This document shows positions 2,612 to 4,898 of a stretch of DNA of 24,066 nucleotides, one piece after another. Both the position numbers and the translations under genes were made by a program. The DNA is from a virus (lineage: Duplodnaviria; Caudoviricetes). Below the pieces are notes generated by a model. It was given only the letters and a program-made list of their open reading frames with translations. It was not told the origin of the DNA and searched no databases. The first letter of the stretch is position 1. Every line of letters starts with the position of its first letter. The stretch is from positions 1-24,066 of IMG/VR virus record IMGVR_UViG_3300020044_000655; one strand, given 5' to 3'.

Positions 2612-2888
2612 ACCGTCAGGGCGCGTTAGCTGATGGTCTGCATGGACTGAACCCAAGAAACACAGGGCTTGGATTACACCCCCAAGATAACCCTACTAGC
2701 CTGTCAGCGAGGGACTAGGGTAGATATTGGTACATGGGTGGGACAAGCCAATATTGGATGAATCGCTGCCTCAAGGGTTTACTGGGATGGTTGGCTTTGG
2801 GGGGAGTTATTAGATTAACTACCCCTTAAAGCATGACCCTCTGGGTAGGGCTGGATAGCATTGGCTACCACCCTTGGGGAAGCTATGC
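2612..2888 (+). ncRNA. Candidate large structured RNA of unknown class
   Basis: No credible ORF. Hairpin 2612-2637, long-range closing helices GCATGG/CTATGC and CCCAAG/CTTGGG, internal stems at 2723-2755, 2801-2825 and 2852-2870, and candidate pseudoknot CAGCGA/TCGCTG. Confidence 0.55.
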
Positions 2889-2930: not shown

Positions 2931-2938
2931 GTAAGCAT

Positions 2939-3072
2939 AGGCATATCTGGCAACAGACCCTTAACCGCAGTGGATGCTGTAGATTGGCTGGCTTAACCAG
3001 CAAGCATTCGGCCCTGACTCTCAGGCTTACCGTGGCGAGAACCCTGATCAATTAACTAAACGAGGTATCCAA
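2939..3072 (+). promoter_or_regulatory. Structured 5' leader of the major capsid mRNA
   Basis: Hairpins at 2939-2961 (GCAA loop), 2987-3001 and 3009-3032. Shine-Dalgarno GAGGT at 3062-3066. Confidence 0.55.
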
Positions 3073-3915
3073 ATGAGCGTTTCTCTATCCAACGCCTTTG
3101 TTACTCTGTTCGATGCGGAAGTCAAGCAAGCCTACCAAGGTAAGGCAATGCTGGTTCCAGCGGTTCGCCAGCGTCGTGGAGTCGAAGGTTCAACTGTAAA
3201 GTTCCCTAAAGTCGGTCGTGGTGTTGCCACTGTCCGTGTTCCCCAAACTGATGTCACCCCTCTGAACGTAGCATTCAGCACCGTCACTTGTACGTTGGCT
3301 GATTACAACGCGGCTGAGTACAGCGACATCTTCTCTCAAGCTAAAGTCAACTTTGACGAGCGTCAAGAATTGGTGCAAGTTGTTGCTGGCGCTATGGGTC
3401 GCCGTCAAGACCAGATGATTCTGGACGCATTGGCTGCTTCTTCTACCAGCTTGACTGTTGCCAACAGCGTTGGTGGTGCAACCACTAACATGAACGTAGC
3501 CAAGCTGCGTGAAGCCAAGCGTTTGTTGGACAAAGGTAATGTGCCACCCGATGGTCGCAATATCATCATCCACGCTAACGGTTTGGCAAACTTGCTGTCT
3601 GAAACCAGCGTTACCAGCTCCGACTTCAACAGTGTGAAAGCATTGGTGCAAGGCGACATCAACACATTCTTGGGATTCACATTCCATGTGTTGGGTGACC
3701 GCTCTGAAGGTGGCTTGGCAATTGACGGTTCTTTGGATCGTACTTGCTTTGCATTCCACAAGGATGCAGTGGGCTACGCCGAAGGTCTTGCCATGCGTAC
3801 TGAGATCAACTACATCCCTGAGAAAACCTCTTGGTTGGTGAATGAAGTCTTCAGTGCTGGTGCAATCGCCATTGATGCGGAAGGTATCGTTCAGATCACC
3901 TGCCGTGAATCTTAA
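3073..3915 (+). CDS. Major capsid protein (BPP-1-like podovirus type)
   Basis: 280 aa, strong RBS. Motifs AFVTLFDAEVKQAYQG, TSSDFN, GDINTFLGFTF and EINYIPEK are characteristic. Position follows the scaffold. Confidence 0.9.
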   Translation: MSVSLSNAFVTLFDAEVKQAYQGKAMLVPAVRQRRGVEGSTVKFPKVGRGVATVRVPQTDVTPLNVAFSTVTCTLADYNAAEYSDIFSQAKVNFDERQELVQVVAGAMGRRQDQMILDALAASSTSLTVANSVGGATTNMNVAKLREAKRLLDKGNVPPDGRNIIIHANGLANLLSETSVTSSDFNSVKALVQGDINTFLGFTFHVLGDRSEGGLAIDGSLDRTCFAFHKDAVGYAEGLAMRTEINYIPEKTSWLVNEVFSAGAIAIDAEGIVQITCRES

Positions 3916-3929
3916 TCTAGGAGACTAAC

Positions 3930-4211
3930 ATGGCTTTTTCATCTACAGGCTTTAACGCAATTGGTGGTCAATCAAAGGCTGGCAATGCTCCCGCAATCTA
4001 TACCTACACCAGCACTGACGCTCAAAGCGTTATCCGTGCATCTGGGTATTTCAATTCGGTGGCTTCCATCCTCAAGGTTGGCGACTTGATCTTTTGCTAC
4101 TCAGCAACTGGTGGCACTCCTGTAATGTCTACCGCTTATGTGAACTCAAACACAGGTACTGTGGTTGACATCACTGACGGTGTGACCGTTACTGCAACTG
4201 ACACTGATTAA
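3930..4211 (+). CDS. Small virion protein (capsid decoration/cement candidate)
   Basis: 93 aa, beta-rich, GYFN..LKVGDLI motif, strong RBS AGGAG. Lies between capsid and the hairpin terminator. Confidence 0.65.
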   Translation: MAFSSTGFNAIGGQSKAGNAPAIYTYTSTDAQSVIRASGYFNSVASILKVGDLIFCYSATGGTPVMSTAYVNSNTGTVVDITDGVTVTATDTD

Positions 4212-4228
4212 TCGGTAGTCGACTGAGT

Positions 4229-4267
4229 AGGCCATCTTCTGGGGATTCTCGGAGGATGGCCTTTCTT
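4229..4267 (+). terminator. Long hairpin, probably a leaky terminator after the capsid genes
   Basis: 15-bp stem AGGCCATCTTCTGGG/CTCGGAGGATGGCCT (three G-U) followed by a short TTCTT tract. The position is analogous to T7 T-phi. Confidence 0.65.
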
Positions 4268-4283
4268 ACATTGAGAGGCACAT

Positions 4284-4898
4284 ATGGCAGCAGGCGATAC
4301 AGGAATTTCAATTTGCTCAGATGCATTGATCATGCTGGGAGCCAAGGCTATTACGTCTTTCAACGATGGCACTGATGAGTCCAGTGCTTGTGATCGCTTG
4401 TATGGCGACATCAGAGACTCTACGCTTGCCACCTATCCGTGGACATTTAGCTTCAAAAAGATTCAACTGGCGCAGTTGCTGACAGCACCAACTTCCGTGT
4501 GGAAGTACCAGTATCAACTGCCTGGCGACAAAATCTCCAACCCTCGTGCTGTGTACAACTCACCAAATTCTGGCAGTCCTGTGCAAAAGGATTGGGAGAT
4601 CCAAGGCGATGTCTTGTTGACCAACCTGACCAGCGTCTACATTGATTACCAGTACAGCCTTGGCGAGTACGCCATGCCCCAATACTTTGTCCAACTGCTC
4701 AAGTACATGATGGCTTGGCACTTGGCAATGCCCATTACCGAACAATCAGACAAGGCCCAATACTGGCAGCGTGTTGCCATTGGCGACATTTCAGAGAATG
4801 GTCGTGGCGGGTACTTCCGCACAGCCATGCAAATTGATGGACAGAACAACCCAGTGCGGGTGATCGAAGATTACAGCCTGATTGCAGTGAGGAACTGA
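4284..4898 (+). CDS. Tail tubular protein A (adaptor, T7 gp11-like)
   Basis: ICSDALIMLGAKAI, YPWTFS and YQYQLPGD motifs; synteny. Confidence 0.85.
   Translation: MAAGDTGISICSDALIMLGAKAITSFNDGTDESSACDRLYGDIRDSTLATYPWTFSFKKIQLAQLLTAPTSVWKYQYQLPGDKISNPRAVYNSPNSGSPVQKDWEIQGDVLLTNLTSVYIDYQYSLGEYAMPQYFVQLLKYMMAWHLAMPITEQSDKAQYWQRVAIGDISENGRGGYFRTAMQIDGQNNPVRVIEDYSLIAVRN

Follow-up and report, generated by a model that had tools for sequence, protein, structure and literature searches.

The put RNA of phage HK022 measures ~70 nt, and the c4 and CI immunity RNAs of phages P1/P7 and P4 are small, with a promoter of their own and a loop-loop pairing. PMC9378689 describes put as a nascent-RNA antiterminator of a lambdoid phage. 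RNA can also start replication: the relevant passages of PMC3035462 (2010) name only the ColE1 and MRB plasmid families as doing so without a Rep protein, and sections of PMC5778457 report that restart proteins initiate replication at R-loops, also on some phage and plasmid DNA.

Here we analyzed 24,066 nt of an uncultured phage (IMG/VR record IMGVR_UViG_3300020044_000655; this whole stretch is called the window), in which a preliminary description had pointed out a candidate structured RNA. The element, at positions 2614-2887, is genuine and belongs to an uncatalogued family of heavily knotted folds. It likely helps to start the copying of phage DNA, because it is often placed where the DNA-binding half of an initiator is missing. 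Our best reading, which we give about an even chance of being right, is that it is a transcription-dependent replication origin acting through a primer or R-loop in the manner of ColE1 RNA II, with which it is not homologous.

Results

Setting of the element

CheckV rates the window, a podovirus-like phage fragment, as 71% complete. Its genes run from a portal-like adaptor (10-1206) and a scaffold-like gene (1463-2257) to the major capsid gene, followed by tail, lysis and recombination genes. The element sits in the 816-nt gap between the scaffold-like and capsid genes, with these neighbors:

2285-2311, + strand: hairpin with a T run, resembling an intrinsic terminator, behind the scaffold-like gene; it contains the -35 box of the next promoter
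2293-2320, + strand: sigma-70-like promoter, 11/12 consensus with a 16-nt spacer (consensus match only)
2328-2430, + strand: leader module resembling a small RNA, a short hairpin and then a long hairpin ending in a T run
2438-2606, + strand: optional folded insert with a 19-bp closing stem (2438-2456/2588-2606)
2900-2930, + strand: promoter-like boxes of the capsid gene directly after the element, read from the sequence, with similar boxes in relatives
3073-3915, + strand: major capsid protein gene (phrog_3437, E 7e-60)

Transcription from the 2293-2320 promoter is predicted to start near 2327, ~560 nt ahead of the end of the element. The boxes at 2900-2930 were missed by the promoter scan because their spacer is 19 nt here. 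Downstream of the element, the window shows nothing like a terminator. On the minus strand, the only candidate promoter for an antisense RNA I is a promoter-like site (9/12 consensus) at 2953-2926. The stretch from the capsid promoter to the capsid start (2935-3072) is itself a conserved, structured-looking leader and is covered by contigs from RNA runs.

Most homologs are preceded by an equivalent leader module, and a promoter followed by a leader hairpin with a T run is the usual arrangement upstream. In the window the leader region (2324-2610) folds at z -6.38, and the loop of the short hairpin (2334-2340) complements 2394-2400 within the long one. This loop-loop pairing changes in step among relatives; the layout of the module is like that of c4 and CI RNAs, and it has no Rfam match. 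The insert at 2438-2606 is present in a few relatives only (L005, L032, L050 and L059).

A conserved multi-pseudoknot fold

The + strand of the element folds better than shuffled controls (z -3.62, 1 of 200 shuffles as good), and the - strand folds at z -2.20. We aligned 55 homologs, excluding seven long or divergent copies. The resulting covariation model has 55 pairs, with 95.0% of cells paired and two-sided change at 40 pairs. No shuffle out of 500 reached its score of 0.516, and slid controls scored 0.035-0.082; the per-pair counts outweigh the total score because the model was derived from the same alignment. What emerges is a conserved fold with several pseudoknots, in which five pairings cross; its parts are:

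2614-2662, + strand: 5' core, a double pseudoknot in which all helices are 100% paired
2664-2694, + strand: P4 hairpin with an internal loop and a conserved loop, two-sided change at 8/8 pairs
2696-2718, + strand: P5 hairpin, covarying, whose loop (2705-2710) forms PK1
2705-2768, + strand: PK1, pairing 2705-2710 with 2763-2768
2723-2755, + strand: P6 hairpin, covarying
2769-2846, + strand: P7 triloop hairpin (2769-2777), P8 (2781-2787/2839-2846) and the variable arm P9 (~2788-2837)
2852-2876, + strand: P10 hairpin and a 3' strand that pairs locally or with the P6 loop, a possible switch
2877-2897, + strand: conserved tail of a purine tract, CTATG (2883-2887) and an A run; its ATG opens a 3-codon frame only

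Each of the two core hairpins, H1 (2614-2616/2623-2625) and H2 (2634-2638/2645-2649), engages its loop in a further pairing, 2619-2621 with 2652-2654 and 2643-2644 with 2661-2662, respectively. The GGG/CCC loop pairing of the core is invariant in the alignment and is swapped in step in variant cores that were found without using it. PK1 is the best-supported helix, with three to five pair types per position among the 55 homologs. This pairing of CAGCGA with TCGCTG had been singled out in the preliminary description, and all six pairs form in 55/55 homologs, each with two-sided changes. Two local stems proposed at the same time are also borne out by the alignment: the CTAG stem (2696-2699/2715-2718) is 100% paired with two-sided change at 4/4 pairs, and 2723-2731/2747-2755 is 95% paired with two-sided change at 7/7 counted pairs. 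Within P7, the tertiary pair 2772/2784 is CG in 48 homologs and UA in 7. Wobble pairs fall on the + strand.

The loop of P6 pairs twice with the 3' strand, 2737-2741 with 2868-2872 (PK2) and 2744-2747 with 2873-2876 (PK3). The fifth pair of PK2 is GC in 98, AU in 41, GU in 11 and AC in 6 of 156 sequences, and 141 of these 156 have the PK3 partner. A local P10 hairpin covers the shared 3' bases in 126/156, again with matching changes. The same 3' bases therefore have two covarying alternatives, which suggests that the 3' strand may act as a switch, pairing either within P10 or with the loop of P6.

All the segments named in the preliminary description stand where it placed them; judged by the alignment, the closure that it proposed is mostly wrong. 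Its outer helix GCATGG/CTATGC has two-sided change at 0/6 pairs, and only 2641-2642/2886-2887 always pair; CCCAAG/CTTGGG likewise has 0/6, with 2652/2878 paired in 22/55; and the 8-bp hairpin that it placed ahead of the closure (2612-2637) has a single two-sided cell, with 2617/2632 paired in 34/51. The bases of these three helices take part in other, covarying pairings instead. As for its two remaining stems, 2801-2825 falls in the variable arm, which is missing from most homologs, and 2852-2870 is conserved, yet its bases are shared with a long-range pairing.

Distribution and modular construction

About 150 distinct viral and metagenome homologs of the element were parsed. Short patterns returned 65 and 119 IMG/VR loci (the 119 include a few chance matches), a looser core pattern returned 62 further IMG/VR loci, and a metagenome search returned 120 loci. 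The first two scans yielded 166 element copies, of which 97 were distinct and 62 lay below 93% identity. A first GTDB scan found no element match. The second gave 15 matches, 13 of them by chance; the two genuine ones, on a short contig of a Betaproteobacteria MAG and in a Gallionella MAG, lead us to infer a betaproteobacterial host. Annotated phages provided a single 54-nt match (MW202484), and no plasmid was found to carry the element, its core or type E (described below). One IMG/VR record (L263) is pBR322-like vector DNA.

At the gathering threshold, Rfam had 0 matches in the window, and thus none to RNase P, tmRNA, SRP, 6S, group I/II introns, ribozymes, riboswitches, ARRPOF, GOLLD or ROOL; at a loose threshold, the best E in the window was only 0.46. 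Three homolog loci gave one weak terminator-type match, 14 sister-type loci gave only a tRNA, and a tRNA/tmRNA search of the window found none. The expectation of a large, ornate, pseudoknotted element outside the known families, voiced in the preliminary description, is supported both by the Rfam searches and by the covariation score. We found no account of the element in the searchable literature, from which the phage form of the core letters is likewise absent. The part of PMC10690425 that was searched held no match; the remainder may contain pieces of the family.

The family is modular. The same 5' core is joined to several different 3' domains, and the 3' domain of the element also occurs with variant cores. 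Further 3' domains on the same core, several of them uncatalogued types, were seen at L205, L208, L212, L222, L209, L236, L370, L397 and L416. Three terminase-context copies (L089, L095 and L190) have the 5' core tandemly duplicated. In L036 and L278 the core is joined to the tail with the middle lost, still before the stand-alone gene described below, either by natural deletion or as an assembly artefact.

Slots without type A, the element studied here, hold one of two other folded elements of 230-330 nt (types D and E). Type D (L319:1580-1790 and 21 similar loci) has a related core, a T-loop-like motif and a G-rich 3' tract, and is not in Rfam. Type E (L342, ~2630-2850, and 11 similar loci) has a different 5' module and an A run at its end. 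DnaA-box 9-mers stand just after type E in 4/15 cases (5 nt past the A run), after type D in 0/25, and after type A in 8/102, mostly in the capsid leader of one clade.

RNA or DNA

The 167 distinct tetraloop stems of all core-bearing types comprise 21 GNRA, 6 GNYA and 5 reverse-complement GNRA loops (P 0.006 for the GNRA excess, counted over relatives that are not independent). Because GNRA exceeds GNYA, an action as RNA rather than DNA is favored. Contigs of relatives that span little beyond the element were found in two of four metatranscriptome runs (307 nt over 2635-2893; 466 nt at depth 38) and did not occur in the other two, with strand and ends not readable from the contigs. The element was not covered in RNA runs X5 and X8, and four further runs were set aside as probably DNA or only guessed RNA.

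These contigs lend weak support to a ribozyme or free structured RNA, a role that the preliminary description had raised, in which the 5' core would meet the 3' tail in a centre for catalysis or binding, the domains between them serving as exchangeable scaffolds. The most invariant bases do lie in core and tail, and the joining of one core to several 3' domains would suit such a plan. Even at loose thresholds, however, Rfam has no ribozyme or intron match, the loop letters of the core can change provided that pairing is kept, and the element lacks a terminator of its own. With neither flanking exons nor a match to a catalytic family, we consider this role improbable. A self-splicing intron was rejected: the flanks are intergenic and unconserved, so nothing would be restored by splicing, and they differ between contexts.

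Alternatively, the fold could form in a displaced single DNA strand and act as a priming or primosome-loading signal. The first block of the core matches ColE1 1549-1531, between the origin and the nick site (E 0.0044 and 0.00027), and in ColE1 (L187:1549-1491, minus strand, upstream of the nick site) a hairpin and CCC come after this core-like block, just as they do in the core. We take this region of ColE1 to be the primosome site ssiB. Passages of PMC3167613 place ssiB downstream of the origin and give no sequence for it. The block is absent, however, from phiX174, F (30-80 kb), ColE9-J and CloDF13, and occurs in only 2/6 other Col-type plasmid stretches, in which it doubles as an arm of an inverted repeat. 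Since it is so patchy among Col plasmids, the match is a lead only. No general pas consensus was found, ColE1 being the only one of these sequences to have the block outside those stretches. Together with the GNRA excess, the T-loop-like motifs of the sister types favor RNA, and we regard a DNA fold as very improbable.

Association with headless initiators

We tabulated the surroundings of 77 distinct type A copies that had been found by pattern and had sufficient flanking sequence. For 34 of them a short replication gene is no more than 2.6 kb away, on the downstream side of the element in 23 cases and on the upstream side in 11. The others are found before the capsid gene (16), after the terminase (10), near recombination or nin-type genes (6) or elsewhere (11). 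The short gene encodes a ~120-aa stand-alone protein that matches only profile positions ~170-260 of the initiator/primosomal families phrog_9474, 270 and 9327, and a Cro-like gene is often upstream. At such loci, the element occupies the cro-origin-initiator slot of lambdoid phages. The Gallionella MAG locus (L198, ~3500-4800) follows the lambdoid order, with ORFs that resemble repressors, an element bearing the core, three DnaA-box 9-mers and a stand-alone initiator domain of 86 aa.

The best 80 homologs of the stand-alone protein are all short stand-alone frames (105-176 aa stop to stop). At 75 of these 80 loci, exactly one of the folded elements A, D and E is upstream, and none has two; the five misses are four contig ends and one internal deletion. 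Among the 35 distinct full-flank loci, 15 have D, 12 have E, 8 have A, and 0 have none or two, the D and E profiles having been built from the same loci in which they are counted. As an independent control, we sampled initiator genes by a peptide motif, obtaining 75 distinct rows, of which 59 were kept (8 were cut by contig ends and 8 had <1,200 nt upstream). The element is present at 11/15 stand-alone genes versus 0/44 full-length initiators. The Fisher P of 5e-9 is inflated, because the 11 positive loci represent about two related groups. By eye the matches are true members, and reversed controls gave 0; a control seeded with the Gallionella protein returned one locus only. The element is thus shown to be linked to initiator genes without the N-terminal origin-binding domain, and this gene context points to replication initiation, which the preliminary description had not considered.

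In five near-complete genomes (96-100%) with the stand-alone gene, neither an HTH_36 nor a DnaB_C match was found, and 79/119 ORFs from four such loci showed genes for recombination, RusA and packaging but none for a polymerase, a primase or a helicase. The structure model of the stand-alone protein has a pLDDT of 71. We assign it no fold, because Foldseek gave no match, the best VIA Z was 4.1, and no PDB sequence matched. Its nearest named family in the Atlas, Phg_2220_C (0.93, 140 shared features), is a lead only.

Copies in the morphogenesis region

The copy in the window, between scaffold-like and capsid genes, belongs to a different context, and the window has no stand-alone gene. All four complete or near-complete genomes with a morphogenesis-region copy (G001-G003 and G011) carry a gene for an N-terminal winged-helix initiator-like protein and no stand-alone domain. 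In three of them, relatives whose copy precedes the capsid gene, the protein is HTH_36 initiator-like; in the fourth, of 56 kb and with its copy behind the terminase, the gene was identified through PHROG by a match to the N-terminal region of primosomal families. Judging by gene order, the winged-helix gene of the phage in the window would lie beyond the contig end. Because the window and its relatives are without the stand-alone gene and the relatives have their own initiator-like gene, an origin role for the window's copy is an extension from the family. Behind the winged-helix gene of two relatives lies a long non-coding stretch that is conserved and has a C-rich tract (L357:7450-8100 and L358:14400-15070, minus strand); it is possibly a protein-run origin or another RNA.

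These varied contexts, in all of which the element leads a gene block and lies on its coding strand, would suit a portable cis-acting leader RNA. Such a leader could make polymerase terminator-resistant, for which put is the precedent, or use the P10/PK2 switch to mask and release a start codon with its ribosome-binding site. The two covarying partners of the 3' bases fit the latter version, as does the tail, with a purine tract and ATG, GTG or TTG in 134/145. The conserved start, however, opens at least 45 codons in only 37/134 and at most 15 in 83/134, and its frame differs between close relatives. With 37/134 long frames and 3 codons in the window, a start-codon reading of the tail (a translational cis-regulator) was rejected as not general. 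Against a leader also stand the new promoter immediately after the element in the capsid context, the position of the element after, not before, the first terminator-like hairpin, and the lack of a common function among the downstream genes. The link to headless initiators would be left unexplained. We regard a leader role as the main rival to an origin, though an unlikely one.

Discussion

If the element is a transcription-dependent origin, RNA polymerase would initiate at the promoter upstream, and the frequency with which it passes the leader hairpin and its T run would determine how often the element is made. The transcript would then fold, remain hybridised to the template near the 3' tail, and open the DNA or prime its synthesis, as ColE1 RNA II does, with the 3' strand swapping the local P10 hairpin for the P6 loop during R-loop formation. 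Host RNase H, Pol I and the PriA route, together with the stand-alone C-terminal domain of the initiator, would load the host helicase. Phages of the window's type would then have two origins, one initiated by protein and a second formed by the copy ahead of the capsid gene. Besides the morphogenesis-region copies, the terminator-like hairpin between promoter and element counts against an origin, and so does the likeness of the tail to a ribosome-binding site followed by ATG.

A bolder version, which we consider rather unlikely, is that temperate-type aquatic phages swapped the origin-binding half of their initiator for a folded RNA at least three times (types A, D and E). The RNA would open the origin, the P6 loop would grip the displaced strand, and the leftover domain would load the host helicase. 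Such an initiator would be split between RNA and protein, with RNA modules that can be exchanged.

Should the element be a transcription-dependent origin, it would represent a third, unrelated kind of RNA-started replicon, found in phages, and would explain the replication of many small aquatic phages without a recognisable initiator, helicase or primase. Whatever its role, the element offers a compact fold from nature that combines five crossing pairings with a swappable core and a covarying switch.

How does the element compare with known systems? Like the RNA II of ColE1 (and of MRB), it would involve several hundred nucleotides transcribed from a predicted upstream promoter, with heavy folding, alternative pairings and no 3' terminator, and it is often found where an origin-binding protein domain is absent. 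Unlike ColE1 RNA II, it resides in phages, has five crossing pairings and a same-strand leader hairpin with a T run, and often accompanies a stand-alone initiator domain. Homology between the two was ruled out (mean z 0.2 for 55 members, no profile match in RNA II). The tail, with its purines, CTATG and A run, resembles the end of the CloDF13 origin, which scores highest among 19,890 sequence windows. Its profile is generic, though, and does not place the end of the ColE1 origin among the top five.

The P1/P7 c4 and P4 CI immunity RNAs fit the upstream leader module (2328-2430) and not the 2614-2887 element, and Rfam C4 has no match in the window. Like HK022 put, the element is a structured, probably RNA, feature that can occupy the early lambdoid operon after cro; unlike put, it is much longer and pseudoknotted, follows a terminator-like hairpin, and also occurs directly before a new promoter. 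With ARRPOF, GOLLD, ROOL and OLE it shares the character of a large, covarying, multi-pseudoknot non-coding element on mobile DNA. It differs from them in its size of ~240-320 nt, in a modular 5' core that is found across 3' domains, and in being tied to initiator loss.
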